Assembly (NCBI GenBank): GCA_049512935.1
Contig: JBEKWR010000015.1
Coordinates: 1-42,974 of the forward strand
Source: Candidatus Bathyarchaeia archaeon
GTDB taxonomy: Archaea > Thermoproteota > Bathyarchaeia > Bathyarchaeales > Bathycorpusculaceae
Reading direction: 5' to 3'
DNA length: 42,974 bases
Part shown: in pieces, positions 3,822-35,615 of the stretch
Numbering within the stretch: the first letter of the stretch is position 1
Layout of the letters: the number at the start of each line of letters is the position of its first letter
Notes under the pieces: model-generated
The model's database searches: none
What the model was told of the DNA's origin: nothing
The model's input: only the letters and a program-made list of their open reading frames with translations
Position numbers and translations under genes: made by a program

Positions 3822-3985
3822 AAACTTTTTAGCACTATTCTAAGTTGAGTGCAATTAGTAAAGCAAGGTTTTTTATTCATCTGAATCCCAAATCTATATT
3901 TTCGGGTTTTTATTCCGATGCTATTTATAACTTGGCAAATTAATAGTTGGAGGTCAATATTTTCGAGACCTATGAAGGCACGATA

Positions 3986-4654
3986 ATGACTGACACTCAT
4001 GCGGTAACAATCTTGCGAATACTAAAAGGCGCCCTAGCGATGCCGAGGCTGGTTAAGCCAAAAGTTGACCCGTTCGAAACCTTGATTGTAACGATTATTT
4101 CACAGAACACCGCTGACACCAACACTGAGCGAGCCTTCGAAGCCCTGTCGAAGCAGTTCGAAATAACCCCTTCAGCGCTGGCTAATGCTGAAACAGAAAG
4201 AATTGAAGCTTGCCTTCACGTTGCAGGCTTATACCAAGCAAAATCCAAAGCAATACAGGCAACCTCAAAAATCATTATTGAAAAATTCGGTGGCTCTCTT
4301 GCGCCTGTTTTGTCTTTGCCTTTGGACGAGGCGAGAAAAACGCTTATGGAGTTGCCTGGTGTTGGACCGAAAACAGCCGATGTTGTCTTGCTCTTCTCAG
4401 CAAACCAGCCCACCATCCCCGTGGATACGCACGTGAACCGCGTGTCTAAACGGCTTGGCTTGGCACCCGCAAACGGCGATTACGAGGCTGTTCGCCTCAG
4501 CCTTCAGTCGTTTTTCGAGCCGAAGGATTACCTCGCGGTTCATCTGCTTCTGATTGCTCACGGTAGAAAAACCTGCAAGGCACAGCGCCCACGCTGCCAC
4601 GAATGCCCAGTTTACGATTACTGCCCGTCAAACTGTTTGGGGGATAAGGTTTGA
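3986..4654 (+). CDS. nth: Endonuclease III (HhH-GPD DNA glycosylase/AP lyase, 4Fe-4S)
   Basis: DPFETLIVTIISQNT, HhH LPGVGPKTADVV, PVDTHVNRV, and Fe-S motif CKAQRPRCHECPVYDYC; start placed at ATG 3986. Confidence 0.93.
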   Translation: MTDTHAVTILRILKGALAMPRLVKPKVDPFETLIVTIISQNTADTNTERAFEALSKQFEITPSALANAETERIEACLHVAGLYQAKSKAIQATSKIIIEKFGGSLAPVLSLPLDEARKTLMELPGVGPKTADVVLLFSANQPTIPVDTHVNRVSKRLGLAPANGDYEAVRLSLQSFFEPKDYLAVHLLLIAHGRKTCKAQRPRCHECPVYDYCPSNCLGDKV

Positions 4655-6582
4655 TTAAGCTGCCGAGCCAAGTGTCCGAGTTCTTCCCCTACAGCAGCGT
4701 GCGACCGCACCAAGACGAGTTCGTCAGCACCGTCTACAACGCCGTGCACGAGCGTCGTTCGGTTCTGATTGAAGGCAGCAACGGACTGGGAAAAACCATT
4801 TCGGCTCTTTCCGCTTGCGTTCCAGTAGCCGTAGAGAAGAACTTGAAGATTCTTTACGTTGCAAGGACGCATCGGCAGCATGACCGCGTCATCGAGGAGC
4901 TGCGGGCGATCTACAACAAGCACCGTGTCTCAGGCGTTTCAATACGCGGACGCAACGAAATGTGCCTCAACGTGTTCGCGCAGAGAGGCGCGTTTGACTC
5001 GAAGTCCCTTATGGAGGTCTGCGAGCTTCTTAAAGCCAAAGGCAGATGCCCCTACTATAGGAGCGTGGACGAGCGAGGATACGATTACCTTGTGCTTCAG
5101 CAGCAAGTCGCAACCCGACCGTACATGGCGTCGGAGATCATCAGTGTGTGCAAGAAAAAACAGGTCTGCCCCTACGAGCTGGTCAAGTCGGCGTTGTCAG
5201 ACGCCAAAGTAATCGCGTTAAGCTACCTCTACGTCTTCGACCCCCAAATCCGAACCGCCTTCCTCAAGAATTTGGAGACTGAGCTTGGGAAAATCATCTT
5301 GGTCGTTGATGAAGCACACAACTTGCCTGAGACAGCCATCGACATTTCAAGCGTGAGCCTGTCGCTTTTCGTGATGAAACAGGCGGAGCTGGAAGCCAAC
5401 AGGTTCCACAACAAGGACGCTGAGGAGTTTGCCCTATTCTTCAGAACCGAAGTGGAGAAGCTACTTGAACATGTCAACAGAGAAGAAATCATTCCCGCCG
5501 AATCCATCATTGGAATCATCGAAAAGCAAGGCATCAAGGATCCACGCGAGTTTTTTGAGCAGCTGCATGATGCGGGCGGCGCAATCAGAAAGAGTTTGTT
5601 GGCTGAAGGGAAGAATCCGCGTTCTTATATTCATGCGATGAGCGAGTTTTTGCTTAAATGCCTCGACACTTTGGGAGACGACTCGTACATTACCGTCGCA
5701 AGCTGCTACCTAAATAAGGAAAGGAACAGGACGGCGAAGCTGCAGATCGTCGCGTTGGACCCGTCGAAAATCACAGAGCCCGTTTTCTCATCGACCTACG
5801 CCAACGTGATAATGTCAGGTACGCTTCAGCCGCTGGACGCGTTTAAGCGGATAACGAGGCTGCCGCAGAACACAGTTGAATGCGTTGTGCCGTCGCCGTT
5901 TCCAAGGGAACACGTTTTTTCAGCGGTCTGCTGTGGCGTCAGCACGTCTTTGGAGAAAAGAACCCCAGCCATGTACCAGACAATGATTCAGCGGATAGAT
6001 GAGGTGGTTGAGAACACTCCGACTAACACTGGGGTTTTTGCCGCCTCATTTGGAGTGCTAAACTCGCTGATTACCGAAGGCTTAGAGAATACGCTGCAAA
6101 AACCGCTTTTTCATGAACGAAGAGACATGACGTCAAAAGCCAACGAGAAGTTGGTTCAGGATTTTAAGGCGTGCGGCGGCAAAGGCGGCGCCGTTTTCCT
6201 CGGCGTGCAAGGCGGGAGAACCTCTGAGGGCGTGGATTTCCCAGGCAACCAAATGAACTCTGTGGTGGTTGTGGGTGTCCCGTATGCTGAGCCGACCCCC
6301 CGTGTGAAGGCGCAGATTGAATATTATGAGAAGCGTTTTCCAGGATTGGGTCGCGAGTACGGTTATGTTTTGCCCGCCATGAAGAAGGCGTCTCAGGCGG
6401 CAGGAAGACCGATAAGAACGCTGGATGACATGGGAGCCATAGTCTTCTTGGACTACCGCTTTTCCACAAGTTACTGCCGAAGCTTCTTGCCATGTTGGAT
6501 AACCGACGGCATGAAGACGCTGCCGAATGAAAAAGGGGTTTTAGCGCAGGAAATAAGCGGCTTTTTCAAAGATCAGTCTTGA
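4651..6582 (+). CDS. xpd: XPD/Rad3-family Fe-S 5'-3' DNA helicase
   Basis: Q motif FPYSSVRPHQ, Walker A GSNGLGKT, Fe-S cysteines, DEAHNL, SGTLQP, SEGVDFPG, QAAGRPIR, LDYRF. Confidence 0.9.
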   Translation: MIKLPSQVSEFFPYSSVRPHQDEFVSTVYNAVHERRSVLIEGSNGLGKTISALSACVPVAVEKNLKILYVARTHRQHDRVIEELRAIYNKHRVSGVSIRGRNEMCLNVFAQRGAFDSKSLMEVCELLKAKGRCPYYRSVDERGYDYLVLQQQVATRPYMASEIISVCKKKQVCPYELVKSALSDAKVIALSYLYVFDPQIRTAFLKNLETELGKIILVVDEAHNLPETAIDISSVSLSLFVMKQAELEANRFHNKDAEEFALFFRTEVEKLLEHVNREEIIPAESIIGIIEKQGIKDPREFFEQLHDAGGAIRKSLLAEGKNPRSYIHAMSEFLLKCLDTLGDDSYITVASCYLNKERNRTAKLQIVALDPSKITEPVFSSTYANVIMSGTLQPLDAFKRITRLPQNTVECVVPSPFPREHVFSAVCCGVSTSLEKRTPAMYQTMIQRIDEVVENTPTNTGVFAASFGVLNSLITEGLENTLQKPLFHERRDMTSKANEKLVQDFKACGGKGGAVFLGVQGGRTSEGVDFPGNQMNSVVVVGVPYAEPTPRVKAQIEYYEKRFPGLGREYGYVLPAMKKASQAAGRPIRTLDDMGAIVFLDYRFSTSYCRSFLPCWITDGMKTLPNEKGVLAQEISGFFKDQS

Positions 6583-7658
6583 ATTTCCCTCAATTTCTCG
6601 TCTAAAAGAACCTTGCCTATCACAATCCTTGCGGGTTTGGCTGAAACGGCGGTTTGCACCTTCAGTTCTTTTCTTTTTTGGTTGATTTCACGCAGAACGC
6701 CTATTCCTAAAAATTTGTTTCTAGAACCGTACAGCCCGACAAGCACGCCTTTTTCTGGGGTTTGATCCTTCGGAATAGCCTTGAGCGTTTCGATAGCTAA
6801 CTGGCTCATTGGGTAACATTGAAGTTTTGCATGCTTCAAGTACCTTGCGTAGGTCATTTCCCTGAGGATTTTGCGTTTTTCCGCGGTTCGCTGGCTCAAA
6901 GAGGAAGAAAGCTCAACTGTAAGCACCGTTTGTTCCATGTCAGCGATCAACTCGTCAAGTTCATCCGCGACTTGAACGCCCACTATGACGTCGGGTTTTA
7001 GCTCTTTCACCATGTCCGCCTTGTAACGGATTGCGATGTCACCCGTAACCAAACCGTCCGTGTTGACCACCACAAAATCAACCGATTTCTGGGAGATTTC
7101 AGCCTTCAAAGCAGCCAAGCCCTCAATTATTCTGGGTAAGGCGGTAATCGGCGATGTGACGCCCATGAAAAAGGCGTTCTCAAGCTTCAAATCGTACAGT
7201 TCCGCAACGGGCTTATGGGTCAAGGCGTAGCCGACGGTGCCTGATGACCCGATGTCTGATTGTCCTAAATCGCCGTCTAAGACAGCGACCCTGCACTTGC
7301 CGTCTACTAACCTGTTAAGCAAGTAGGTGCAAAAGCTGCTTTTCCCAGAATCACTTTTCCCTAAAACCATAACAACCGCGGGCTTCTTCGGCAAATTCAA
7401 AATTGCTTCAAGAGGCTTATCCCATGAGCTCGGTATGGTGGTGCCCTCGGCTTCTCCAACGCTAGCGTTTGCGCCAAGCGATACGTCGAAGACGGCTTTT
7501 TCGAGAACAAAGAAAGGAAGCCGCTTGCCTTCCCGCACCACGACCCTTTGAGTCTGCTTAAGTGGGCAGCCGAAAACTTCAGCCTTGCCGCTGACAACCT
7601 TCACAGATGCGGGACCGTCAACTATCAGTGTCCTATTGGATTCGACCGTTTGTTGCAA
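6573..7658 (-). CDS. Clp1/Grc3/NOL9-family polynucleotide 5'-hydroxyl kinase
   Basis: N-terminal beta domain (IVDGPASVKVVSGKAEVFG), Walker A GKSDSGKSS, LDGDLGQSDIG, VNTDG, lid RKILRE; TTG start at 7658 behind GAGGAG. Confidence 0.85.
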   Translation of the reverse strand: MQQTVESNRTLIVDGPASVKVVSGKAEVFGCPLKQTQRVVVREGKRLPFFVLEKAVFDVSLGANASVGEAEGTTIPSSWDKPLEAILNLPKKPAVVMVLGKSDSGKSSFCTYLLNRLVDGKCRVAVLDGDLGQSDIGSSGTVGYALTHKPVAELYDLKLENAFFMGVTSPITALPRIIEGLAALKAEISQKSVDFVVVNTDGLVTGDIAIRYKADMVKELKPDVIVGVQVADELDELIADMEQTVLTVELSSSLSQRTAEKRKILREMTYARYLKHAKLQCYPMSQLAIETLKAIPKDQTPEKGVLVGLYGSRNKFLGIGVLREINQKRKELKVQTAVSAKPARIVIGKVLLDEKLREIQD

Positions 7659-8289
7659 TCTTCTTTCTCCTCTGAACAATATAGCCTGTTCTTGCAGCTA
7701 TGCTTATGGCGGAGGAAATGTGCCTGATTTTTCGGCTTCGCTTGTTCTCTGCTAAGGGTCGGTTCGTACCCGCTTCACCTACGACTTCCAGCGCAACTTC
7801 AGGCGGAAGCGCCTCGTCCAAGTTTTCAACCATTTCCTTGTAGACTGGAACCCCGTTGCCGATTTTAACGGAGACGTTTGTTACTGAAAAATTTACGTTT
7901 CTAACCATGCGGCTTATGCTGTTGATTAGTTCCTGTGTGCTGAAACAGTTGCTTTCTTCAATCACTTCGCCGTCCGCAATTATCGCAAGCCCGATTGCTC
8001 CGCCCGGGTCGATGCCGACGGTTATTTTTTCGTAAGATTCTTTGCCTGAAAGCGTGCGTTTTACCGCGTTAATTAAGGTGTCAAGCTCGGTGTCGTCGCT
8101 GAGGACCAATATTTTTTCGTGTTTTATCAGGTGGCGTTCCCGCTCGGTTGTTATAACCACTTTCACTTCGGAGGGCACTGGCTCGCCTGGAACCACACTT
8201 ACGAAAGGGATGCGTTGTTCTCGTAACTCGTTAACGATTAGAAAGTAAGCTTTTCCCTTTACCGTTGCGACCGCAACTTTTTCTTTCAA
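7633..8289 (-). CDS. Conserved archaeal protein with YqgF/RuvX-like RNase H fold
   Basis: VGIDPGGAIGLAII, VKIGNG, VVGEAGT, ISSAISIA; likely TTG start at 8289 (track start 8340 runs into the divergent promoter region). Confidence 0.65.
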   Translation of the reverse strand: MKEKVAVATVKGKAYFLIVNELREQRIPFVSVVPGEPVPSEVKVVITTERERHLIKHEKILVLSDDTELDTLINAVKRTLSGKESYEKITVGIDPGGAIGLAIIADGEVIEESNCFSTQELINSISRMVRNVNFSVTNVSVKIGNGVPVYKEMVENLDEALPPEVALEVVGEAGTNRPLAENKRSRKIRHISSAISIAARTGYIVQRRKKIATNGRIQ

Positions 8290-8364
8290 TAAATCAACCT
8301 TATAGTATACGTTTAAGTGCAAAAACATTACTAGATTCAAGTTTAATAAAACTTGGGTATAAAA

Positions 8365-9063
8365 ATGGCTACAATCAGCACAGGCTGCGTATGCATCGAC
8401 AGCAAAATCGGGGGAGGCATCTCGCCCGAGAGCGTTACCTTAGTCTATGGTGAACCAGAAACTGGAAAAACAACGCTTGCCATGCAATGCGCCGTCAGCT
8501 GTGCGGTTCTAAACTTCAAGGTTTTGTTTGTCGACTGCGATAACACTTTCTCAACGAAGAGGCTTTCTCAACTTTCAGGTGACAAGTTTGACCAGGTGGC
8601 TACGCAGATTATTTTGATTAAGCCTAAAGATTTCCGTGAGCAAACCGTGCTTGTAGATCACATTCAAGATTACACGGAAAAGAATTTTGGGTTAATAGTC
8701 GTCGACACGTTAACGTCCCTGTACGGGGCAGAAGTCTCCCAATACTCGGGTAAAGCCTTCAGCGTAAACCGCGAGTTAAACAGGCAATTAGCCATTTTAG
8801 CTCAAACCGCAAAGATCCGGAAAATTCCAGTTATAATAACAAGTCAGGTCAGAAGCGTTTTTGACAACCCGAATGTCAGTGTTGCTCCAGTCGCTAACCG
8901 AGTCTTGAAATTTTGGGCGGACACGATAATAGCTTTGAAGCCGACGGATTATCCTCAAATCCTAAAAGCGGTTGTGGAGAAAACACGGGAAAATTCTCAA
9001 GAAGTTAACTGTTATGTACAAATAGTCGAATCTGGAATACAAGATACTAAATTCCAAGAATAA
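8365..9063 (+). CDS. radB: RadB-like RecA/RadA paralogue
   Basis: ISTGCVCIDSKIGGGI, Walker A GEPETGKTT, Walker B IVVDTLT, VIITSQV; lacks the RadA N-terminal HhH domain; ATG at 8365. Confidence 0.72.
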   Translation: MATISTGCVCIDSKIGGGISPESVTLVYGEPETGKTTLAMQCAVSCAVLNFKVLFVDCDNTFSTKRLSQLSGDKFDQVATQIILIKPKDFREQTVLVDHIQDYTEKNFGLIVVDTLTSLYGAEVSQYSGKAFSVNRELNRQLAILAQTAKIRKIPVIITSQVRSVFDNPNVSVAPVANRVLKFWADTIIALKPTDYPQILKAVVEKTRENSQEVNCYVQIVESGIQDTKFQE

Positions 9064-9572
9064 TGACGGTTGAACACATGGACATAGCCCTACTGGTAGT
9101 TGACGCGTTAAAGTTTATTTTCCCAGCCTACTGCGCAAACGCCACGCCCGTGCTCGCTGGCGGAGGAGCCAAAATGGATTTTGGAAGAAACTTTTTCGAT
9201 GGCAAACGAATTTTCGGAAACAACAAGACTTTCAGAGGCTTCTTTTTCGGCTTAGCCATAGGCATGCTGGTTGGGTTCATGGAAGTTGTCGCTTTTCATT
9301 TTCCCGCTCTGTTCCTCCTCTTGATTCCTTTAGGGGCGCTTTTAGGCGATTTGGCAGGGGCATTTCTTAAGAGGCGAGTGGGGATTGCGCCTGGAGGTTT
9401 ACTGCCTATCGTTGACCAAGTGGACTTTGTGATTGGGGCAATCGTGTTCTCGATTCCTTTAGCCATCGTGAGCTGGCAACTGGCAGTTACGGTTCTGCTG
9501 ATTACGCCGCCTATCCACCTTTTCACAAATTTTGTCGCTTACAAGTTGAAGCTGAAAAAAAACCCATGGTAG
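9063..9572 (+). CDS. carS: CDP-archaeol synthase (DUF46)
   Basis: PAYCANATPV, DGKRIFGNNKTFRG, GDLAGAFLKRRVGI, PIVDQVDF, KLKLKKNPW. Confidence 0.93.
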   Translation: MTVEHMDIALLVVDALKFIFPAYCANATPVLAGGGAKMDFGRNFFDGKRIFGNNKTFRGFFFGLAIGMLVGFMEVVAFHFPALFLLLIPLGALLGDLAGAFLKRRVGIAPGGLLPIVDQVDFVIGAIVFSIPLAIVSWQLAVTVLLITPPIHLFTNFVAYKLKLKKNPW

Positions 9573-15395: not shown

Positions 15396-15401
15396 AAGCG
15401 C

Positions 15402-16295
15402 ATGACAACAAAAAGCCGCGCGGTGTTCCCAAAGGTTCCTGACCAACATAAACCTGGAAAACCACTGGTACCCAACGGCTTAGGCGTCGCCTACGTCCTG
15501 TTCACCACAGTCTACCTTTTTGTTCTTTACTTTTCAGGATTGATAAAGAACCCGTCCAACGTTTCAGCGCCCATCTCAGCGCCCTTGATCCTGGCGGCAT
15601 GCATTCTTTTCGGCGGCTTCATGGGTTTACTTGACGATTGGATGGATCTTAAATGGCGGTACAAGGCGTTCATGCCCCTGATCGCGGCTTTGCCCCTCAT
15701 TTACTACGCGAAAGAAATAGGGGCAAGAACAACCCTGTTCATACCTTACATCACGACGCTTCATCTGGGTCCAATTTACTTTTACGTGATCCTTCCAGTC
15801 ATCGTGATGATAGTTACAAACACGGTTAACATGCTCGGCGGGCTCAACGGGTTAGAAACAATATGCCCAGCCATCGTCATAATCGGATTAATGATCATCT
15901 CATCCTCTTACATCCTGATGGTCGGACCGATACTGTTCTGGCTGGTACTGGCGTACTTCAACTTCAGAGGAAAGATTTTCGTCGGCAACTCAGGCTCTTT
16001 CGCCATAGGAATGACCATAGCCGCGTTCGCGGTGATTTCAGACTTAAAAGCAAGCCTGTTCATCGCAATTCTGCCCTACATCTTCAACTCATCATTGATA
16101 CTGCTAACAGTTTTCTTCACGCGCCAAAAAGCCCAAGTTAACTTCGACGGCGACAAATTGTGCTCCGACCACAGAAGAAGCCTAATCACGTTGATAACTT
16201 TCCATCACCCGATGAGTGAAAAACAGGTCGTCAGGATAATCGCTTTGATAGTTGCGGTTTTCACCGCGTTAGCTGTCATTAGCCAACTGATATGA
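15402..16295 (+). CDS. aglH: UDP-GlcNAc:dolichyl-phosphate GlcNAc-1-phosphate transferase (GPT/AglH/ALG7, MraY superfamily)
   Basis: DQHKP..VPNGLG, GLLDDWMDLKWRYK, TNTVNMLGGLNGLE, KIFVGNSG; starts 6 nt after the aglB stop. Confidence 0.8.
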   Translation: MTTKSRAVFPKVPDQHKPGKPLVPNGLGVAYVLFTTVYLFVLYFSGLIKNPSNVSAPISAPLILAACILFGGFMGLLDDWMDLKWRYKAFMPLIAALPLIYYAKEIGARTTLFIPYITTLHLGPIYFYVILPVIVMIVTNTVNMLGGLNGLETICPAIVIIGLMIISSSYILMVGPILFWLVLAYFNFRGKIFVGNSGSFAIGMTIAAFAVISDLKASLFIAILPYIFNSSLILLTVFFTRQKAQVNFDGDKLCSDHRRSLITLITFHHPMSEKQVVRIIALIVAVFTALAVISQLI

Positions 16296-21229: not shown

Positions 21230-22021
21230 TTGATAAAAAAGAAATCTATTCACACTTACCTTTTTCTAACAATAATAGGACTGCTTCTAATCGCGCCAGT
21301 AGCACAAGTTTCAGCCCAGACGGAATGGAACCTACAGGTAACCAACTTGGGAGACACAACCGCCAACTACGCCTACAACCAACTCTTGGCGATGCCACAA
21401 ACCACCGTTTACGCCAACGAGCTTTGCTACGGCGGCTCCGTAGCCAGCGGCAACTGGGTCGGAGTCAGCCTTAGCTATCTACTTCAGCAAGCAGGACTAA
21501 CCCCAGCAGTCGCTTCGATTGATTTCCAAGCTCAAGACGGGTACGCAGTTATCCTCCCAGTTCAGGAGGCTATGCAGTCTGACGTGATCATTGCTTACGA
21601 ATTAAACGGGTCACCTTTACCTGAAACGCTACGTCTGGTGGTTCCTGAAGAAAACGGCAACATTTGGATAGCACTGATTACTTCAATAACAATGAGCACA
21701 AACGTAGTTCAATCAGCGTCTGGCGGTGGAGGAACAGAAGGCGCAATCCCTTCATCCAGCCCAACTGTGCAATCTTCAACTCCACCCGTACAGCAACCAT
21801 CAACAACGCCACAAAACCAGACCCAAACTGAAACAGGCGTACTTTCATCAAACACCACTCAACCCGAACAAAAAACAACTGCGCCTCAAACTCCCCTGAG
21901 TTCAAGTTTTCCATCCGTCGCTTTATACGCCATAGCAGTTGCCGCGGCTGCAGGGTTTGCGGCGGCAGGCTTTACAGCTTATAAGCGCAAGCGCGCAAAC
22001 CAAAGCGTCAGCCTGCCCTAG
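21230..22021 (+). CDS. Secreted, C-terminally membrane-anchored molybdopterin-dependent oxidoreductase (sulfite-oxidase/MsrP fold) domain protein, copy 1
   Basis: Signal peptide ending VSA-Q; ELCYGG, WVGVSLSYLLQQAG, AQDGY..LP, IAYELNGSPL, LRLVVP; S/T/P/Q linker; FPS + TM + KRKR. Confidence 0.8.
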   Translation: MIKKKSIHTYLFLTIIGLLLIAPVAQVSAQTEWNLQVTNLGDTTANYAYNQLLAMPQTTVYANELCYGGSVASGNWVGVSLSYLLQQAGLTPAVASIDFQAQDGYAVILPVQEAMQSDVIIAYELNGSPLPETLRLVVPEENGNIWIALITSITMSTNVVQSASGGGGTEGAIPSSSPTVQSSTPPVQQPSTTPQNQTQTETGVLSSNTTQPEQKTTAPQTPLSSSFPSVALYAIAVAAAAGFAAAGFTAYKRKRANQSVSLP

Positions 22022-22172
22022 GGGTTTAGAAAAGATGCGAAAAGAGGGCCAAGTCTCAAATTTCCTAATTTTTTAGCTACTTAGCTAAGCAGCCTGCTAA
22101 GTGAATGAGGTAAGTGCGGAGGCAGGTAAGTGCACCATTTCGATGGTGATTCTTTTGGTTTAGCTGGGAATG

Positions 22173-22196
22173 TTTAAAAGTATGACGCGCGTCATA
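22173..22196 (+). promoter_or_regulatory. TATA box TTTAAAAG followed directly by perfect 16-bp palindrome TATGACGCGCGTCATA
   Basis: Seen directly 21 nt upstream of the TTG at 22218; arms identical to those at 21192-21207. Confidence 0.72.
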
Positions 22197-22217
22197 AATA
22201 CTGTAGAGATGTGAGAT

Positions 22218-23015
22218 TTGACAGAAAAAAAAATTCTCCAAACCTTCCTTTTCCTAACACTATTCGGGTTGCTGCTGATAACCCCGATAGGAAAAGCGGC
22301 AGCTCAAACAGATAACAGCTTACAAGTAACCAACACAGAAAACGCGACCGCCAGCTACACCGACAATCAACTCTTAGCGATGCCACAAACCACCGTTTAC
22401 GACGATTGCTACTGCACAGGCGGTTCGATAACCAGCGTGGAGTGGGTCGGAGTAAGCCTCTACTATCTGCTTCAGCAAGCAGGACTGGATTCAACGGTCG
22501 CTTCTGTTGATTTTCAAGCTTCAGACGGAAACTCAGCAAGCCTTCCACTGCAGGAGGCCATACAGGCCAACGTGATTGTCGCCTACGAAGTAGACGGTTC
22601 ACCTCTATCTGGGCTACGCTTGGTGGTTCCTGGAGAAAACGAAAACGTTTGGTTAGCGCCTCTTACTTCAATAACCATGAGCACCACCGTAACTCAATCC
22701 GCAACTTACAGTTCAAAAACAGCGGTAGTTGTGCCGTCACCCCCTCCAATCGGGCAATCTTCAACCCAGCAAACGCCCGTTCAATCACAACCCACTGCCA
22801 CCCCACAAAACCAGAATAGCCCTGAACCAGCTGCATCTCCATCAAACGTCACCCAACCCGGACAGAAAGCAGCTGAGCCTAAAGTTTCCGCAGGAACAGG
22901 TTTTCCTTCCGCAGCGCTCTACGTGTTGGCAGCTGTAGCAGCAGTTGCATTGGCGGCGGCAGGCTACACGGCTTATAAGCGCAAGAGCAAGACAAAAACC
23001 ACACAGTCAACCTGA
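22218..23015 (+). CDS. Secreted, C-terminally membrane-anchored molybdopterin-dependent oxidoreductase-fold protein, copy 2 (tandem paralogue)
   Basis: Shares NQLLAMPQTTVY, WVGVSL.YLLQQAGL, DFQA.DG, LRLVVP.EN.N.W and FPS-TM-AYKRK with copy 1; has DCYCTGG. Confidence 0.8.
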   Translation: MTEKKILQTFLFLTLFGLLLITPIGKAAAQTDNSLQVTNTENATASYTDNQLLAMPQTTVYDDCYCTGGSITSVEWVGVSLYYLLQQAGLDSTVASVDFQASDGNSASLPLQEAIQANVIVAYEVDGSPLSGLRLVVPGENENVWLAPLTSITMSTTVTQSATYSSKTAVVVPSPPPIGQSSTQQTPVQSQPTATPQNQNSPEPAASPSNVTQPGQKAAEPKVSAGTGFPSAALYVLAAVAAVALAAAGYTAYKRKSKTKTTQST

Positions 23016-26174: not shown

Positions 26175-27425
26175 CTAAGCTTTGCCTGGCTGGTTGCGGA
26201 AAAGTGAAACCGCGACTTCTTCATTTGCATCCACAAACTGCTCGTTTTCAGGAATCTCCACGAACCCGTCAGCCTTAGCCAACGTGGTGATCGCTCCTGA
26301 CGCGCCAGACTCAACGGGTTCAGCAATCAAACGGCAGCTTTCATCAAACATCAACTTCACCATGACAAACGTTCGCCTGCCCTTAGCGCTGAACATTCGG
26401 GAGCCAGCGACGGCTCTGACCGTTTTCATAGGTACGACAGGCCTGCCCGCCAACTGCTGAATCAAGGGTCTAGCAAGCAGATAAAAAATCAGCAGCGCCG
26501 AGGTTGGGTGACCCGGCAGGGAGAAAACGGGTTTGTCCCCGACGAACCCCACGGTGGTTGGTTTGCCAGGCTTAACGGCGATGCCGTACACGATTATTCC
26601 AGGCTTGCCCAGTGAATCCACGATTTGCGGGGTGTAGTCCCGCGGACCCACGGATACGCCGCCTGAAGTAATCACCATGTCAGCAGAAGCCAAAGCCGCA
26701 TGCAAAGACTTAGACAAAGCCGCCTTGTCGTCGGCTACGACGCCGAAATAGACGGGTTTGCCGCCACTCTCAACCACCGCCGTGCTTATGCTGTAAGCGT
26801 TGATGTCGTAGATTTTTCCAGCAGGCAAAGGCTTGCCAGGCTCGGTTACCTCGCCGCCCGTGGACAAAACCGCAACCATCGGGATCTTTGAAACCCAAAC
26901 TTTCGTCAAGCCCAAGGCTGCCAAAACGCCGATCTCCGATGAACCTAAAACCTGCCCCTTCTTGAGCACCACCTCGCCCTTCTTTATGTCTGAGCCGCGT
27001 TTCATAACGTTCTCGTTTGGGGTGACAGGTGTGAAAACATGCAACTCTTCGTTTTCCCGCTCGGTGTCTTCAACCATGACTGCAGAATCCGCGCCTTCAG
27101 GAATCGGTGCTCCCGTGACGATTTCCGCCGCTTCGCCCTTGCCGACCTTAACCTGAGGCTGCTCCCCAACGCTTACGACGCCGCTGACTCTGAGAGTTGC
27201 AGGCTGGTTTTCGTCTGCGCCGAAAGTGTCCTGCGCTTGGACGGCGTAACCGTCGACTGTGGAGCGGTTAAACGGGGGAATATCAAGAGTTGAAACCACG
27301 TCTTGGCTGAGAACGCGGTTGTAAGCCTCAAGAAGCACCGCTTCTTCTTCGCCTAAAGCTGGGGGTTTAAACTGGGATTCGATCGCTTTCTGCGCTTCGT
27401 TAAACGTCATGAGTTTACGGAACAC
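26175..27425 (-). CDS. moeA: Molybdopterin molybdenumtransferase MoeA
   Basis: PPFNRSTVDGYAV, IVTGAPIPEGADSAVMVE, STGGEV, TSGGVSVG, KPGKP, LPGHPTSA. Confidence 0.93.
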   Translation of the reverse strand: MFRKLMTFNEAQKAIESQFKPPALGEEEAVLLEAYNRVLSQDVVSTLDIPPFNRSTVDGYAVQAQDTFGADENQPATLRVSGVVSVGEQPQVKVGKGEAAEIVTGAPIPEGADSAVMVEDTERENEELHVFTPVTPNENVMKRGSDIKKGEVVLKKGQVLGSSEIGVLAALGLTKVWVSKIPMVAVLSTGGEVTEPGKPLPAGKIYDINAYSISTAVVESGGKPVYFGVVADDKAALSKSLHAALASADMVITSGGVSVGPRDYTPQIVDSLGKPGIIVYGIAVKPGKPTTVGFVGDKPVFSLPGHPTSALLIFYLLARPLIQQLAGRPVVPMKTVRAVAGSRMFSAKGRRTFVMVKLMFDESCRLIAEPVESGASGAITTLAKADGFVEIPENEQFVDANEEVAVSLFRNQPGKA

Positions 27426-28666
27426 TACGATGCAGCCTCCACGACTCCAAACATGTGCACCATCACAGTTTCGCCTTCGCTCACGCCTTCACGGTTCTCG
27501 GGAACCACAAGAAAACCGTTGCTCTGCGTCATGGTGGAGATTGAGCCTGAACCTTTCGTGCTGACCGGCTCAGCAATAAACTCGCCCTGCTTCGACGTCA
27601 CGCGGACCCGAACGTAGGTTTTTCTTCCGAGAGCGCTTGCCACCCGCCTCGACAGAGTTGCCTTCAACATTGGCCTCGGCTCCGTTTCAGTCATGCCTAG
27701 CATTCGGCAAACCATTGGGCGCCCGAAAACTTCGAAACCGATGATTGCTGCGACTGGGTTGCCTGACAGAATCAAGACAGGCTTATCTTTCAGAATGGCG
27801 AGAGCCGTCGGCATCGCAGGTCTAACTGCTACCCCGTGAACCAACACGCCCGGCTTTCCCAGCTTCTTGACGGCGTCAGGAACCAAGTCTAAACCGCCTA
27901 CGCTTGTGCCGCCCGTGGTGACCACGGCATCCATGGTTTTTAGGGCTGTTCCTATTTTTTCGGCGATTTCGTCAACGTCGTCTTTTGCGATGCCGTAGTC
28001 GGTTGTTTCTGCGCCGAGCTCTCTGCACACGGCGGAAATCATGACTTTGTTCGAGTCGTAAATCAGGCTGCCGCTCAGCTTTGACCCCGCCTCGGCAAGC
28101 TCGTTTCCCGTGGCTAAGATGCCGATCTTCGGTTTCACGGCGACTTTAAGCTGGTTTAAGCCTAAGGCAGCGGCTAAGCCGAGGTGGTAGGGGTTCAAGC
28201 GTGCGCCAGCCTTAGCGATGAGGGCGCCTTTCTTGAGGTCTTCCCCAATCTTAGCAATGTTCTCGCCCGGGGCAAGTTGGCTCCAAACCTCCAGTTTCCC
28301 CTTGACTTCTTCGGTGTTTTCAAGCATGATGACCGCGTCAGCGCCTTTCGGAATGGGGTTTCCAGTCCAAATCTGCTTGGCTTGCTTGGCGCCCACTTCT
28401 TGGCTGTCGACTAACTGGAAGCTTACGGGTTTTGACTGGGACGCGCCCGCGGAATCCGACGAGTTCAAAGCGTACCCGTCCATGGCTGACCTGTCAAACC
28501 TCGGCAGGCTCTCCTCTGCGACAAGGTCTTCGGCTAAAACACGTCCTAACGATTCCTGCAAAGACGCCAGTTCACATTTGGGCTTCCCAATCTTGAGGGT
28601 TGCAAGCCACGTTTGCAGGGCTTTGTCGGTTAACGTTAATTTTTGGAACCCCTTAAGTTTCACCAA
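27425..28666 (-). CDS. moeA: Molybdopterin molybdenumtransferase MoeA paralogue
   Basis: PRFDRSAMDGYA, IWTGNPIPKGADAVIMLE, ATGNEL, TTGGTSVG, RPAMP, SGNPVAA; likely start TTG 28666 or GTG 28663. Confidence 0.92.
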   Translation of the reverse strand: MVKLKGFQKLTLTDKALQTWLATLKIGKPKCELASLQESLGRVLAEDLVAEESLPRFDRSAMDGYALNSSDSAGASQSKPVSFQLVDSQEVGAKQAKQIWTGNPIPKGADAVIMLENTEEVKGKLEVWSQLAPGENIAKIGEDLKKGALIAKAGARLNPYHLGLAAALGLNQLKVAVKPKIGILATGNELAEAGSKLSGSLIYDSNKVMISAVCRELGAETTDYGIAKDDVDEIAEKIGTALKTMDAVVTTGGTSVGGLDLVPDAVKKLGKPGVLVHGVAVRPAMPTALAILKDKPVLILSGNPVAAIIGFEVFGRPMVCRMLGMTETEPRPMLKATLSRRVASALGRKTYVRVRVTSKQGEFIAEPVSTKGSGSISTMTQSNGFLVVPENREGVSEGETVMVHMFGVVEAAS

Positions 28667-28742
28667 AACAATCCCACACAGAGCACTAAGCGACGTTATG
28701 TAAAAAACGTATCGAAACAAAAAACGCCGAATTAAGCGTTGA

Positions 28743-30323: not shown

Positions 30324-32000
30324 TTAGTAGGGCATTCCGCCCATACCGCCCATGCCACCCATTCCACCCATGCCGCCGCCCATTCCGCCTGGAGGCATCG
30401 GAGGCATTTTTCCGCCGCCTTTGACGCTGATTAGGTCGTCGATTTTGAGTATCATGTTTGTGGCTTCGGTGGCTGATTTTATGACCTGCTGCTTCACCCG
30501 CAGTGGCTCAATGACGAGTAGGTCTAGCATGTTTTTGATTTTCCCTGTTGTGACTTCTATGCCCATGTATTTGCTGTCTGCTTTTTCGTGTGCTGATCTG
30601 AGTGCCACCATGACGTCGATGGGGTCTAACCCTGCGTTCTCAGCCAACGTAAGCGGAATCGATTCGACCGCTTCAGCGTAAGCTTCAACCGCGAGCTGTT
30701 CTCTGCCGCCGACTTTAACCGCATACGCGCGTAAACCTTTGGCTAGTTCCGCTTCGGGTGCGCCGCCGCCTGCAACGATTTTGCCGTCTTCAATCGCGTT
30801 TCTCACAACACATAAGCCGTCATGCAGTGAACGTTCTGCCTCGTCGATAACATGGTTGGATGCGCCTCGGATGACGATTGTTACGGCTTTGGGGTTCTTG
30901 CATTCGCGTATGTAGATGAGTTTGTCATCGCCGATTTTTACTTCTTCGACACGCTTTGCTTTGCCAAGTGTGTCAGCGCCCAAGTCTTTTACGTTTGCAA
31001 CTATTGTGGCGCCTGTTGCTTTGGATAGTTTTTCTATGTCGCTGCTGCTTACGCTTTTAACTGCTAAGACTCCTGCTTTGCCGAGGAAGTGTAGTACCAT
31101 GTCGTCAATGCCTTTTTCGCAGAAAACAACGTTTGCACCGGATTTCGTAACTGACGTAACCATTTCTTTGAGCATGCGTTCTTCTTCGTCGAGGAAAAGT
31201 TGCATTTGGTTGGGGCTTTCAATGTTGATTTTAGCGTCGAATTCTGTTTTTTCAATCTCCATCTTTGTATCTAACAGGGCGATTTTGGCGCCGTCGATCA
31301 CTTTGGGCATCCCTGAGCTTGCGACTTCCTTGTCGATAACCATTCCTTTGACAAGTTCTGTTTCGTCTAGGCTTTTGCCGTGTTTTTTGACTACTTTTAT
31401 TAGGTCAATGTCAGCTTTGTATTTGCCGTCGACTTTTTCAGAAACCTGTTTAACCGCCTCAACGATGATTTTTGCAAAGTGCTCTTCAGCAACATTGATA
31501 CCTTTGCTAGCCAGGGATGTGATTGCTACATCCTTCAGGGTTTTATCATCATCTATGGAAACAGGAATGGCTATTTGATCCAAAATTTCTTGAGCTTTCT
31601 CACTTGCCTTCTTGTAACCTTCAATTATAACTGTGGGATGCACGTTTTTGTCAAGCAAGCCTTCAGCCTTTGAAAGCAGCTCTCCAGCTAAAATCACCGC
31701 TGTTGTTGTTCCGTCGCCTACCTCGTTGTCCTGAGCCTTGGCAACTTCAACCAGCATTTTTGCCGCTGGATGCTGAATGTCAAGTTCTTTCATGATGGTT
31801 GCGCCGTCGTTAGTTATGGCTACGTCGCCCATGCTGTTAACGAGCATTTTGTCCATGCCGCATGGACCAAGCGTGCTTTTCACTGCTTCAGCCACTATTT
31901 TTGCAGCCATGATGTTGTTTTTTTGTGCTTCGCGACCTGTTGTTCGGCCTGTTCCTTCTTTCAGTACTAGGATTGGGACTGTTCCTCCACCTTGAGACAT
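30324..32000 (-). CDS. ths: Thermosome (group II chaperonin) subunit
   Basis: [43 protein letters not shown]-repeat tail; ATG at 32000. Confidence 0.97.
30334..30390 (-). repeat. Degenerate 9-bp coding repeat for the chaperonin (GGM)n tail
   Basis: Plus strand carries CATTCCGCC/CATACCGCC/CATGCCACC units. Confidence 0.8.
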
Positions 32001-32051
32001 AATTTTCACCAAGTTTTAATCTTTTAATATAAACGGAATTCAACAATCAGG

Positions 32052-32207: not shown

Positions 32208-33266
32208 TTAGGCTTTGATGATGTGGTAGCCTGACGCTTTGCGCAGCCTGTTCATGACGGCTAACCCGAGACCTTCAGAGGGGACGCCTTCAGCTATTAT
32301 CACGTCAACGCCTTGGCTGTCAACCTCCCGCAGCAAACGGAAAAGGTTTCTGGCGACAATCGCCAAGTTAAAGCGGCTGCCTAAGGATTCAACCACGTCC
32401 GCGGTGTAGCTGGCTTGTGTTTCGTCAGTGGCTAAGACTCCTATTTTTGCGCCCTTAAGCCTGTACGATTCGGTCAGCTGCTTCACTTTAGCCACAACCG
32501 CTGGAACATCACCTTCCACAAGGATAACATCCGCCCTTGGCGCGTAATGCTTATGCTTCATTCCAGGAGACCGAATCTTCTCCAGAGGCAACTCAGCCTC
32601 AGCCTCAACAAACGGGTGAAGCCTAATGTCGCTGAAAACCTGCTTTAACGCTTCAAAAGAGGTTCCGCCTGGCCGAAGAACCATCGGCGGATCAACGCTT
32701 AAGTCCACAACGGTGGATTCAACCCCGATGCTTGTGGCACCGCCGTCCAAGATAACGTCGATTCTTCCGTTTAAGTCATCATAAACGTGCTGGGCAGTGG
32801 TCGGGCTGGGTTTCCCCGCGAGGTTTGCGCTTGGAGCGGCTATGGGGCAACCGCTTTGCCTAATCAACGCCAACGCGACCTTATGCTTTGGCATGCGAAT
32901 CGCAACCGTGTCTAAACCCGCAACTGTCACGCTGGGCACAGCACTTGAACGTTTGAAAACCAGCGTCAAAGGCCCCGGCCAAAACCGCTCCATCAGCACT
33001 TCAGCCTTCTTCGGCACCGCGTCCACAAGCCTGCGGACTTCACCTTCGTCAGCGACGTGAACGATCGGCGGGTTATCCAGAGGACGCCTCTTAGCTTCAA
33101 AAAGCGCCAGAACAGCGTCAGCGTTCAGTGCGTCTGCTCCTAAACCGTAAACTGTCTCTGTGGGAAAAGCCACCAGCCCCCCTTTGCGGATGACCTGTGC
33201 AGCGACCTCTATTTTTGAGAGGTCTGGGTTTTCTGAGTCGACTTTTAGCACGAGTGTTTCTTTCAT
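32208..33266 (-). CDS. sua5: Threonylcarbamoyl-AMP synthase Sua5 (YrdC + SUA5 domains)
   Basis: AFPTETVYGLGA, KRRPLDNPPIVH, FWPGPLT, AAPSANLAGKPSPT, SPGMKHKHYAP, MNRLRKA. Confidence 0.95.
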   Translation of the reverse strand: MKETLVLKVDSENPDLSKIEVAAQVIRKGGLVAFPTETVYGLGADALNADAVLALFEAKRRPLDNPPIVHVADEGEVRRLVDAVPKKAEVLMERFWPGPLTLVFKRSSAVPSVTVAGLDTVAIRMPKHKVALALIRQSGCPIAAPSANLAGKPSPTTAQHVYDDLNGRIDVILDGGATSIGVESTVVDLSVDPPMVLRPGGTSFEALKQVFSDIRLHPFVEAEAELPLEKIRSPGMKHKHYAPRADVILVEGDVPAVVAKVKQLTESYRLKGAKIGVLATDETQASYTADVVESLGSRFNLAIVARNLFRLLREVDSQGVDVIIAEGVPSEGLGLAVMNRLRKASGYHIIKA

Positions 33267-33327
33267 TCAGGATTGCCTTTTCAGTTTGAGTACTGGTTAA
33301 TCATTGGGTTTCACTGTTTTTCGGTTG

Positions 33328-33699
33328 TCAGGTTGCCGTCGGCTCCTTTTGGCCTTCACCCTTAATAATTTTGTCAATGAGGTGCATGAAGAATCCTTGG
33401 GCTTGAATTTCGGTCACCGTATCCAGGTAAACTGAGACAAGGGCGATTTTGCCTTTTTTGGAAGCCACATACTCAGCGAACATTCGCGCCGAAATGACGT
33501 CCTTGTCTCCTAAAAGCACGGACGACGTGACGGGGGCAAGCGCGTCTTTGGCTCTGGGAACAGCGATAGCCAGGGTTCCAAGCTTATCTTCTTTTTCGCT
33601 TAGCATCACCATGCACGAGTTTTTTGATTCAACGTAAACCGCCAGGAAACGGGTGTCCTGTTGAGTAACCTCTTCCTTCGTGACTTTGGCGCGTTCCAA
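33328..33699 (-). CDS. Proteasome assembly chaperone PAC3/PAC4-like protein
   Basis: 123 aa; KLGTLAIAVP, VTSSVLLGDKD and AEYVASKKGKIALVSVYL resemble human PAC3 (KMGTLVSLEP, TTKVLLGQDE) and PAC4 (LRNLAVAM, VSTSLLGD, AQRLARKTNKQVFVSYNL) as recalled. Confidence 0.65.
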   Translation of the reverse strand: MERAKVTKEEVTQQDTRFLAVYVESKNSCMVMLSEKEDKLGTLAIAVPRAKDALAPVTSSVLLGDKDVISARMFAEYVASKKGKIALVSVYLDTVTEIQAQGFFMHLIDKIIKGEGQKEPTAT

Positions 33700-33884
33700 T
33701 TTCGTTTCTCTCCTTTTTCAATGCTGGTTAATGATTGGACTCCTTAAAAAACTTCACAAGCCGCCAGCGCAGCATTTCTTGGAAGAGCCGCATCTGCATT
33801 TCCGAGAGCCCACGACTAAAACGGGATTTTACAGCAAGACATTAAGGGCGGAACACTTTAACAGTCAAACGTAAGGTCTGTGCC

Positions 33885-35162
33885 ATGAGCGGAGCCAAAC
33901 AGGTCAGAAAGTATCTGCTTCCGACCTTACTCATCGTCGTGCTGCTGGTTTCCGTAGGGGCGTACACTTCTTACTCGATTGGAAACCAGCCTAAGCCGAA
34001 TCCGAACGTTTACGTCGGGGTGGCTTTCGGGGGAAACACCACCGAGGAAGCCAAAGTTTTGATTGACAAGGTGAAAAGCTACACGAACCTTTTCATATTG
34101 GCCACTGGGCGCAATTCAATTACGCAGAACGAAACGGCGGTTGAGGAGATTTGCAATTACGCCGTCGCGAACGGTTTAAGCGTCATCGTGGACATTGGTG
34201 TTAAGGATCATCTTGACGCCAGCCGCTACTGGTTTTGGAAGCAGCCGCTTAACGTCACTGAGAGGTGGGAGGCGATGTGGGGTGACAAGTTCTTGGGAAT
34301 GTACTATAACGACGAGCCAGGCGGAATCCAGCTTGACGGGAACTGGTCAGAGTGGTTTAGCACTTACGGTCAACATTACCTTCAGCAGAACACTTCCAAA
34401 ACAGCCAGAGACCTCGACCAAATCTACCTGAAGATGCTTGGGTACATGGGAAACGGGACGAGCCCTCCAAACTACAATTTGGAAGCCAACTTTTTCGTCC
34501 AAGACATCCTTGGAGGGGACAGCGGATTTAACGCTTTGAAAGCCGCCAACGTCACAACGTTCACCTCTGATTATTGCCTGTACTGGTTCGATTACAAGGG
34601 AGGATACAACGTCATGTTCGCCGAGTTAGGGTGGAACTGCAGCGCAGCCGAGCAGATCGACCTTGTGAAGGGAGCGGCAAGAATGCAGGGTAAAGAGTTT
34701 GGCACGATGATCACTTGGAAGTACTATGAGCCACCTTACCTTGAGAACGCATCCCAAATCTACGACCAAATGCTAACTTCCTACGAGGCTGGAGCAAAAT
34801 ACATCGCTGTTTTCGATTACCCCTACAATGGGACCGGTCAGTACGGCGTGCTAACCAATGACCAGTTAAACGCGATGCAGAGCTTCTGGAACGACATTCA
34901 CCAGAAAACTTTTCCCAACCTGAGCGCGTCAGACGCAGTGTTGGTGCTGCCTCAGAACTACGGTTGGGGCATGCGTGACCCGAACGACACAATTTGGGGT
35001 TTCTGGCCGCCCGACAACAAAACCGTGCAGGTAGCCACAGCCATGAGCACGCTTCTGAAGCAGTACGGGGTTAGCCTTGACATAGTTTACGTTGACCCGC
35101 AGTTCCCAGTTGCCGACGTGGGGTACAAAAGCGTTTACTACTGGAACCAAACGGGCATTTAG
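33885..35162 (+). CDS. Membrane-anchored extracellular protein, putative glycoside-hydrolase-like TIM barrel
   Basis: N-terminal signal anchor; YYNDEPGG and MFAELGW motifs; aromatic-rich; 14 N-x-S/T sequons. Confidence 0.55.
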   Translation: MSGAKQVRKYLLPTLLIVVLLVSVGAYTSYSIGNQPKPNPNVYVGVAFGGNTTEEAKVLIDKVKSYTNLFILATGRNSITQNETAVEEICNYAVANGLSVIVDIGVKDHLDASRYWFWKQPLNVTERWEAMWGDKFLGMYYNDEPGGIQLDGNWSEWFSTYGQHYLQQNTSKTARDLDQIYLKMLGYMGNGTSPPNYNLEANFFVQDILGGDSGFNALKAANVTTFTSDYCLYWFDYKGGYNVMFAELGWNCSAAEQIDLVKGAARMQGKEFGTMITWKYYEPPYLENASQIYDQMLTSYEAGAKYIAVFDYPYNGTGQYGVLTNDQLNAMQSFWNDIHQKTFPNLSASDAVLVLPQNYGWGMRDPNDTIWGFWPPDNKTVQVATAMSTLLKQYGVSLDIVYVDPQFPVADVGYKSVYYWNQTGI

Positions 35163-35240: not shown

Positions 35241-35615
35241 TTGAGTGATGAACTTTCAAGGTTACCGCCTAACGTGCAAGAAAGACTTCTTAGACTGCAA
35301 CAGCTGCAGCAGACACTACAGTCGATTCTTGCGCAGAAACAGCAGGTTGACATGGAAAAATCAGAGGTTGAACAGACCATAACTGAACTTCAGAAAAGCG
35401 CCGACGACGCGGTCATCTACAAGGCTGCGGGTTCACTGCTGATTAAAGCGGAGAAGCCGAAAGTGACCGAGGAGCTTGTTGAACGCAAAGAGCTGCTGGA
35501 CACGAGAAGCACGGTTCTGAACAGGCAAGAAGAACGGATGCGCAGCCAAATAAAAGAGTCACAGACGAAGCTCCAAGAAGACCTAAACCCCGTTAATCAG
35601 GCGCCGTCATCTTAG
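35241..35615 (+). CDS. pfdB: Prefoldin subunit beta
   Basis: LPPNVQERLLRLQQLQQTLQ coiled coil, IYKAAGSLLIK hairpin, second coiled coil. Confidence 0.93.
   Translation: MSDELSRLPPNVQERLLRLQQLQQTLQSILAQKQQVDMEKSEVEQTITELQKSADDAVIYKAAGSLLIKAEKPKVTEELVERKELLDTRSTVLNRQEERMRSQIKESQTKLQEDLNPVNQAPSS

Follow-up and report, generated by a model that had tools for sequence, protein, structure and literature searches.

A PAC4-related protein of Bathyarchaeia is encoded beside a UbiD-type decarboxylase in related genomes and may assist that enzyme

We analyzed a stretch of 42,974 nucleotides (the window), which is contig JBEKWR010000015.1 of assembly GCA_049512935.1 from a Candidatus Bathyarchaeia archaeon, and in particular a small minus-strand gene, referred to here as the PAC-like gene, whose 123-residue product is related to the eukaryotic proteasome assembly chaperone PAC4. 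The position of this gene in related genomes indicates that the conserved working partner of its product would be a UbiD-type decarboxylase of the mevalonate pathway and not the proteasome. The explanation that we favor, with confidence a little above even, is that the PAC-like protein is a helper of this decarboxylase that assists the formation of the active enzyme. In what follows, G000 is the window genome, f1 is the family of the window, and the other f-numbers are families in our sample of the phylum.

According to a search with the family profile, the PAC-like gene is present in 97 of the 301 genomes sampled from the phylum and was not found in the remaining 204. The carriers include nearly all genomes of the window's class, the 43 genomes of f12 without exception, and genomes of f14, f19 and f24; many other families gave no match. 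For the comparison of neighborhoods, 71 orthologous loci were used, corresponding to 53 of the 54 carriers outside f12 (G137 was left out, its gene being split over two contig ends) and to 18 of the 43 f12 carriers; neighboring genes were scored with local profiles, and a UbiD was considered full-length if it had at least 400 amino acids (aa). A full-length UbiD gene is found on the same strand, 3' of the PAC-like gene, in 31 of the 71 loci, which come from seven families and two classes. Relative to the PAC-like stop, its start ranges from 32 nucleotides (nt) upstream to 1 nt downstream, mostly with overlaps of 4 or 8 nt. By family, the coupling is seen in 18/18 loci of f12, 5/5 of f2, 4/14 of f1, 1/2 of f3, 1/3 of f4, 1/1 of f6 and 1/1 of f14. 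In two further loci, the UbiD is truncated at the end of the contig (G125) or fragmented (G216). At the second of these, locus L062 of f4, the downstream UbiD consists of five pieces of open reading frame (ORF), and a second UbiD match is found elsewhere in the genome; the pieces reflect either the decay of this copy or a fault in the assembly. Both f9 loci have the order PAC-like-UbiX-UbiD-AcnX-AcnXs, with a UbiX recognized by TIGR00421 (259 bits) and PF02441 (E 7.9e-50).

Because aconitase-X genes adjoin every single-copy UbiD examined, we take the PAC-coupled UbiDs to be the anhydromevalonate-phosphate decarboxylase (AMPD) of the archaeal mevalonate pathway, which is described in passages of PMC11816158. 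UbiD occurs in 278 of the 301 genomes, and presence/absence statistics therefore cannot discriminate here. The preliminary description of the window had assigned the protein to the assembly of the proteasome alpha ring, a job for which the genomic context offers no support: the conserved partner is UbiD, sometimes UbiX, and among the ORFs of all 71 loci, within about 5 kb, neither of the two models gives a match to proteasome alpha or beta genes. A scan with the single protein P0190 added five further loci, all from Bathyarchaeia and none with UbiD, and P0211, the member from Helarchaeota, gave no match when metagenome contigs were scanned with it.

As judged by profile comparison, the window protein is a genuine PAC4 homologue. 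It matches the Pfam profile PF16093 (PAC4) at 24.1 bits (E 3.5e-5, profile positions 9-75 of 77), below the gathering threshold of 31 bits; the same profile is matched at E<=0.01 by 49 of the 57 family members, and its cut-off is exceeded by 9 of 56 family relatives, with 31.4-35.7 bits. The alignment of these 57 sequences (A1), used as a profile against the PDB, retrieves at E<=10 two distinct sequences, both of human PAC4 (5wtq, E 1.1e-7; 8qyj_M/8tm3, E 1.4e-7; 34.9 bits), in an alignment that spans about 60 residues with the common motifs LLGD and LA.RLA.K. The window protein as a single sequence finds nothing meaningful in the PDB (best E 0.29), and NCBIfam has no family for it. The PAC4 strings given in the preliminary description, LAVAM, VSTSLLGD and LARKTNKQVFVSYNL, are indeed present in the aligned PDB chain of PAC4. 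That description had named PAC3 as a second relative, and here the resemblance extends to the fold and not to the sequence: the best PF10178 (PAC3) value in the whole genome is E 0.305, and no PAC3 chain is retrieved by A1 from the PDB at E<=10.

The structure predicted with AlphaFold (pLDDT 92.8, pTM 0.85) has five strands, a helix at residues 68-82, a strand at 85-91 and a helix at 97-113, in the order beta5-alpha-beta-alpha, which is the six-stranded sheet with two helices of the PAC3/PAC4 fold. All four sequence stretches previously quoted as secondary-structure elements (KLGTLAIAVP, VTSSVLLGDKD, ARMFAEYVASK and IALVSVYL) were located in the translation, and the third, described as a helix, falls inside helix 68-82, while the fourth is strand 85-91. 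The top Foldseek match of the model is PAC4 in the human alpha-ring intermediate 8qyj (chain M, E 6.7e-8, TM-score 0.74/0.80), followed by PAC3 (8qyj_L, TM-score 0.68/0.71; 6jpt, E 2.6e-6; 2z5e) and then by yeast Pba3/Pba4. There are 15 matches at E<=0.001, and beyond PAC3, PAC4, Pba3, Pba4 and the bacterial protein LpdD the values fall to an E of about 0.1. An independent aligner gave Z 13.0 for 2z5b_A, 12.2 for 2z5e_A, 9.4 for 2z5c_E and 7.2 for 5wtq_A, the next unrelated fold having Z 6.2. With a profile E of 1.1e-7 and a Foldseek E of 6.7e-8, the match to PAC4 is far beyond chance.

The homology to PAC4 is already in the databases; the functional role, as first read, is not supported. Automated annotations of homologues, whose existence had been suspected, do exist under the NCBI name "proteasome assembly chaperone 4 family protein", which is also carried by a protein of a Helarchaeota (Asgard) metagenome-assembled genome and by clusters of the ESM Atlas. 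An archaeal PAC3/4 homologue is not mentioned in the consulted portions of PMC13022661, bioRxiv 10.1101/2025.05.09.653063, PMC4541365 and the Asgard structure survey PMC12962969.

The PAC-like ORF begins with TTG. The start position is the same in its genus-mates, and in G077 the codon at this position is ATG. On the minus strand, the sequence about 45-55 nt ahead of the start codon contains a TATA-like run rich in T, TTTTTTTAAGG, and a Shine-Dalgarno-like GGAG motif lies about 12-15 nt ahead of the TTG; we regard this upstream region as a candidate promoter and ribosome-binding site. In A1, residues N27, G41 and G64 are invariant, and T42, P48, S59, A75, E76 and S89 are nearly so. The gene is under purifying selection, with ratios of nonsynonymous to synonymous substitution (dN/dS) of 0.095 for G000-G077, 0.062 for G061-G222 and 0.062 for G013-G148, all of them pairs with unsaturated dS. 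In a collection clustered at 90%, 2760 proteins match the window protein at E<=0.001, and the best 120 of these are 80-100% identical, the few with NCBI names being mostly from Bathyarchaeia; at the 50% identity level there are 94 matching representatives at the same E.

The PF16093-like gene is single in the window genome (next match, E 0.168), with no PF10178 match beside it, and 96 of the 97 carrier genomes have one PAC-like match, G137 having two fragments on separate contigs. A single copy with no PAC3-type paralogue fits a homo-oligomer, in agreement with the homodimeric form that had been proposed earlier, and the PAC-like protein is probably homodimeric.

For the predicted model, the nearest prokaryotic structure is LpdD of Lactiplantibacillus plantarum (8po5; Foldseek E 2.4e-5, TM-score 0.61-0.64; chain A in the independent aligner, Z 10.7 and root-mean-square deviation 3.0 over 107 residues). 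Passages of PMC10865409 describe LpdD as a homodimer with the Pba3/Pba4 fold that binds the reduced prenyl-flavin prFMNH2 and helps to activate UbiD-family decarboxylases, and its gene as co-transcribed with the UbiX homologue lpdB. The corresponding Pfam family is PF21758, which is named PAC_bac in the Pfam copy used; the Atlas, which draws on Pfam 38.1, gives the name LpdD_chaperone. In the window genome, PF21758 has no match at E<=0.01, and the 27-bit gathering threshold is not reached; among the family members, 10 of 57 match at E<=0.01, and P0200 alone passes the threshold, with 32.6 bits; this protein exceeds the cut-offs of both PF16093 and PF21758.

LpdD-type genes recognized by PF21758 occur in 26 of the 301 genomes of the phylum (24 of the 25 in f18, and one each in f33 and f41), and their distribution is complementary to that of the PAC-like genes: the two are never found in the same family of the sample. 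In all nine f18 loci examined (L126-L134), the LpdD-type gene is tail-to-tail with UbiX. The genes upstream of it vary in these loci and include thymidine-phosphorylase-like and Topo VI A genes. The alignment of these archaeal UbiX-adjacent proteins (A8) matches LpdD 8po5 with E 1.6e-14 and PAC4 with E 1e-3, and hhalign joins A1 to A8 with 96.2% probability (E 2.5e-9). Homology between the window family and LpdD follows from these two alignments, A1 to A8 and A8 to LpdD, the bridge passing through A8 only. In this profile comparison the window family is placed as a third branch of one superfamily with PAC4 and LpdD, nearer to PAC4 in sequence and LpdD-like in its genomic company.

LpdD (8PO5/8PZO/8PZH/8P4W) and the window family are similar in size and fold, and both have neighbors from the UbiX/UbiD system, a company that is seen for the window family at the family level and not in the window itself. 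They differ in the partner, which is a gallate decarboxylase for LpdD and a mevalonate-pathway UbiD for the window family, and in the metal site. Residues H35, H61 and D63 are strictly conserved in LpdD, and the archaeal LpdD-type family keeps PH.G, GHKD and GIH; by profile-profile alignment, the LpdD site corresponds to K39, D65 and D67 of the window protein, where G64-D65-K66-D67 is the counterpart of the metal loop GHKD, the loop being kept and the histidines not.

On this basis, the PAC-like protein would act as LpdD does, helping to turn the apo-decarboxylase into the active holo-enzyme. By analogy, it might hold the reduced prenyl-flavin cofactor and hand it over, or it might stabilize the decarboxylase during loading or assembly. 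The proposal implies that the protein would bind UbiD physically, and that it would bind the cofactor. In the window genome, where UbiD is now elsewhere, the role would have persisted.

Several observations weigh against a helper of the decarboxylase. The metal triad of LpdD (His-His-x-Asp) is not conserved in the window family, which by sequence is nearer to PAC4 (34.9 bits) than to LpdD; the direct route to LpdD fails, with A1, P0200 and a sub-alignment leaning towards PF21758 (A7) all missing it at E<=10 and finding PAC4 only. No UbiD lies within 600 nt of the PAC-like gene in 36 of the 71 loci, including all of those from f5 (5, one at a contig end), f19 (8) and f24 (3), and in 7 of the 71 loci a gene of the PAC2 family lies 1.9-4.6 kb from it. 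In the window genome, the PAC-like gene and UbiD are on different contigs and not adjacent; this UbiD shares 34-43% identity with its PAC-coupled counterparts and, in a FastTree phylogeny of 43 UbiDs, belongs to a separate clade with those of f5, which is never PAC-adjacent in the loci examined. Three of six sampled genus-mates (G169, G190 and G258, 96-97% complete) keep UbiD and have an empty slot in place of the PAC-like gene, and the protein must therefore be dispensable for that type of UbiD; these genomes retain sua5, and also the thermosome gene wherever the retrieved sequence extends that far. Conversely, G037 (98% complete) has the PAC-like gene and no UbiD match, and since it has no real AcnX match either, a missing contig is likely. 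In a co-fold of two PAC-like chains of G013 with the coupled UbiD, the score was 0.00 against a mark of 0.32, the UbiD chain alone being scored, a result that counts neither for nor against the pairing.

The absence of UbiX is a further point of this kind. The window genome gave no match to a canonical UbiX, its sole PF02441 protein being the archaeoflavoprotein AfpA (TIGR02699, 221 bits), and neither did the 16 other f1 genomes or those of f3, f4, f6, f19 and f24. It was likewise not found in f16, though UbiD is in a mevalonate operon there, and in f2 it occurs in G045 only, one of the two sampled window-order genomes without the PAC-like gene. Five UbiX-less genomes were checked with PF02441: two have a CoaBC-sized protein and three have nothing. 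With no detectable UbiX, a simple hand-off of prFMNH2 from UbiX to UbiD cannot hold unchanged in the window lineage; what the neighborhoods display is a PAC-like protein tied to UbiD rather than to UbiX. AfpA was considered as a general stand-in for UbiX and rejected, as its occurrence is limited to 23 of the 301 genomes, with no match in f2, f3, f4, f6, f19 or f24. Within f1, AfpA was not found in the four genomes whose UbiD is PAC-coupled and is present in the remaining 13; all 12 of these 13 in which UbiD was typed have the replaced type, that of the mevalonate kinase-UbiD-AcnX arrangement. On contig 11 of the window genome (about 45.0-46.3 kb; L046:860-2058), a gene resembling FMN reductase/WrbA overlaps the AfpA gene by 4 nt. 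Whole families (f1, f3, f4, f6, f19, f24 and f16) have UbiD in the mevalonate operon and no detectable UbiX; in them, the prenyl-flavin would be made differently, or the enzymes would work without it.

The distance between the two genes in the window genome can be traced within f1. Four f1 genomes (G013, G133, G148 and G288) have the order EndoIII-[PAC-like]-UbiD-Sua5-thermosome, with a UbiD of 447-449 aa that overlaps the PAC-like stop by 4-10 nt. In the window and in the other f1 members, UbiD is missing from the slot between the PAC-like gene and sua5, and the single UbiD of the window genome is found on contig 1 (about 7.3-9.8 kb), in an operon with the order mevalonate kinase-UbiD-AcnX. 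The gene had been described as lying on the same strand as sua5 and the thermosome gene, and within 2 kb of the prefoldin gene, in a proteostasis-rich neighborhood. The positions are right, prefoldin being on the other strand; the grouping is not, since among the orthologous loci the sua5/thermosome arrangement is seen within f1 only. Given the order kept by the f1 relatives and the UbiD tree, this adjacency is a remnant of the replacement of UbiD and not a functional grouping. The window is thus a case of a PAC-like gene outliving the displacement of its partner under purifying selection. The genes that are directly upstream of the PAC-like gene in many relatives form a set (3947..9572) about 24 kb away from it in the window.

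Among the alternatives to a helper, a stoichiometric small subunit that stays permanently in the active AMPD oligomer, on the model of VdcD with VdcC, is unlikely. The short overlaps with UbiD, mostly of 4 or 8 nt, suggest translational coupling and equimolar synthesis, and the coupling is tightest in UbiX-less families, where a hand-off from UbiX to UbiD makes less sense. The absence of the cofactor-linked His triad of LpdD points in the same direction, and VdcD is reported, in passages of PMC10865409, to be integral to active VdcCD. A permanent subunit is, however, hard to reconcile with the 36 loci where the genes are unlinked, with the three genus-mates that keep UbiD and lack the PAC-like protein, and with the many families of the phylum that have UbiD and neither a PAC-like nor an LpdD-type gene.

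Less probable still, and quite unlikely in our estimation, is a proteasome assembly chaperone, in which a homodimer representing the state before the PAC3/PAC4 duplication would bind the beta-facing side of the alpha subunits and assist or check the formation of the alpha ring. To our knowledge, proteasomes are universal in the phylum. The homology is strongest to PAC4, by the profile matches and PF16093 results given above, the structure search ranks PAC4 and PAC3 of 8qyj highest, and the window genome has one alpha gene (on contig 33), one beta gene and three genes of the PAC2 family (PF09754), which is also the family of the genes near the PAC-like gene in the seven loci mentioned. A proteasome client would also account for the constraint that the gene remains under in genomes with a relocated or replaced UbiD and for the presence of the PAC-like gene in lineages without UbiX. 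Against this, the gene was not found in two thirds of the genomes of a phylum with universal proteasomes (204/301), no alpha or beta gene occurs in the orthologous loci, and the sole tight, repeatedly conserved linkage is with UbiD/UbiX, the sua5/thermosome/prefoldin neighborhood being lineage-specific. The position of R82 of PAC4, which passages of PMC11410832 give as a residue in contact with alpha4, is Tyr in the window protein and lies outside the conserved columns of the family. Moreover, a single type of alpha subunit implies a homomeric ring, and portions of PMC13022661 report that homomeric alpha rings self-assemble.

The known eukaryotic systems differ from the window family in the same respects. 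PAC4 (PSMG4) and yeast Pba4 (5WTQ, 8QYJ chain M, 8TM3; PF16093) provide the best sequence relative of solved structure, of the same length; however, PAC4 pairs with PAC3, and the heterodimer acts on an alpha ring that is hetero-heptameric, whereas the window genome has one gene and one alpha type, so the arrangement of two paralogues in a heterodimer has no counterpart there, and the genomic linkage of the family is with UbiD instead of proteasome genes. PAC3 (PSMG3) and yeast Pba3 (2Z5E, 6JPT, 2Z5B/2Z5C; PF10178) share the fold with the window protein, and PAC3 is able to crystallize as a homodimer, according to the title of entry 6jpt. PbaA/PbaB, the archaeal proteasome assembly chaperone-like proteins that have been studied (PMC3605417), belong to the PAC1/PAC2 family (PF09754), an unrelated family and fold class of about 250 aa.

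Other genes recur beside the PAC-like gene. An HD-domain protein is encoded in 13 of the first 20 loci, and in f19 a radical-SAM gene is directly upstream. A gene of about 190-235 aa that recurs upstream, represented by the unnamed 235-aa gene of Table 1 in the window and by L023:7006-7584 in an f12 locus, has weak matches to DUF460 (E 2.5e-4) and RuvX (E 0.042) and may encode a nuclease with the RNase H fold. In the f12 loci (L023-L027 and L074-L086), a Cys-rich, Lys-tailed gene of 125-150 aa and without a family abuts or overlaps the PAC-like start in most cases, giving a string of three genes: a small Zn-ribbon-like gene, the PAC-like gene and UbiD. A generic small-dimer assembly or ligand-binding module whose client is unrelated to both UbiD and the proteasome is very unlikely: the recurrent HD-domain, radical-SAM (f19) and DUF460/RuvX-like neighbors and the persistence of the gene after UbiD replacement speak for it, but these neighbors are housekeeping genes of unrelated pathways, none of them translationally coupled across classes as UbiD is.

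Table 1. The PAC-like gene, its surroundings and other genes of the window. Positions are those of the 42,974-nt window.
Feature	Position	Strand	Remarks
PAC-like gene (PAC4/LpdD-superfamily protein)	33328..33699	minus	123 aa, TTG start; ORF read from the sequence
Putative promoter and ribosome-binding site	33700..33760	minus	inferred from sequence only
Spacer between the PAC-like gene and sua5, 61 nt	33267..33327	minus	slot of UbiD in G013, G133, G148 and G288
sua5	32208-33266	minus	PF01300+PF03481, TIGR00057; context only
Thermosome subunit gene	30324-32012	minus	downstream neighbor; context only
Prefoldin beta	35241-35615	opposite to the PAC-like gene	1.5 kb from the PAC-like gene
EndoIII	3947-4654		former upstream neighbor (Pfam)
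XPD-like helicase	4651-6582		former upstream neighbor (Pfam)
CLP1_P	6573-7679	minus	former upstream neighbor (Pfam)
Unnamed DUF460/RuvX-like gene, 235 aa	7633-8340	minus	former upstream neighbor
KaiC/Rad51-like ATPase	8353-9063		former upstream neighbor
CarS	9063-9572		former upstream neighbor
425-aa protein gene	33885-35162	plus	divergent from the PAC-like gene
STT3/AglB oligosaccharyltransferase and GT4-family gene	13083-16295
AN1-CAP fusion, 423 aa	142-1413	plus
Tandem molybdopterin-oxidoreductase-domain genes and tandem MoeA paralogues	21230-23015 and 26175-28720	plus and minus, respectively	within 8 kb

The window has other genes of interest besides those discussed. The 425-aa protein matches no family of Pfam or NCBIfam; its N-terminus is hydrophobic, and N-x-S/T sequons are numerous in its translation. 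A gene for an STT3/AglB oligosaccharyltransferase is present in the window together with a gene of the GT4 family. In the 423-aa ORF near the left end, a CAP (cysteine-rich secretory protein) domain is preceded by an AN1 zinc finger at the N-terminus, which is an unusual combination in one protein. The molybdopterin-oxidoreductase-domain genes and the MoeA paralogues are two each.

Our search of the open PMC and bioRxiv literature, which covers neither subscription journals nor supplements, gave no publication that connects LpdD or PAC4-like proteins with archaea or with the archaeal mevalonate pathway. A bolder proposal, which we consider rather doubtful, is that PAC4 (and PAC3) arose from archaeal proteins that first served a UbiD-type decarboxylase of isoprenoid synthesis and not the proteasome, with the window family, which is nearer in sequence to PAC4 than to LpdD, is represented in Asgard archaea and is still coupled to UbiD, as the surviving intermediate, and that in lineages with UbiD and without UbiX the PAC-like protein may belong to a UbiX-independent route of activation.

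If the PAC-like protein does assist the decarboxylase, the archaeal mevalonate pathway would gain an unrecognized accessory factor for its UbiD-type enzyme, of relevance to archaeal lipid synthesis and to the engineering of this ATP-saving pathway in bacteria. Archaeal genes annotated as "proteasome assembly chaperone 4 family protein" would then carry a name that misleads as to function, and the eukaryotic PAC3/PAC4 pair would have a testable origin in a chaperone of another oligomeric enzyme that was later recruited to the proteasome.

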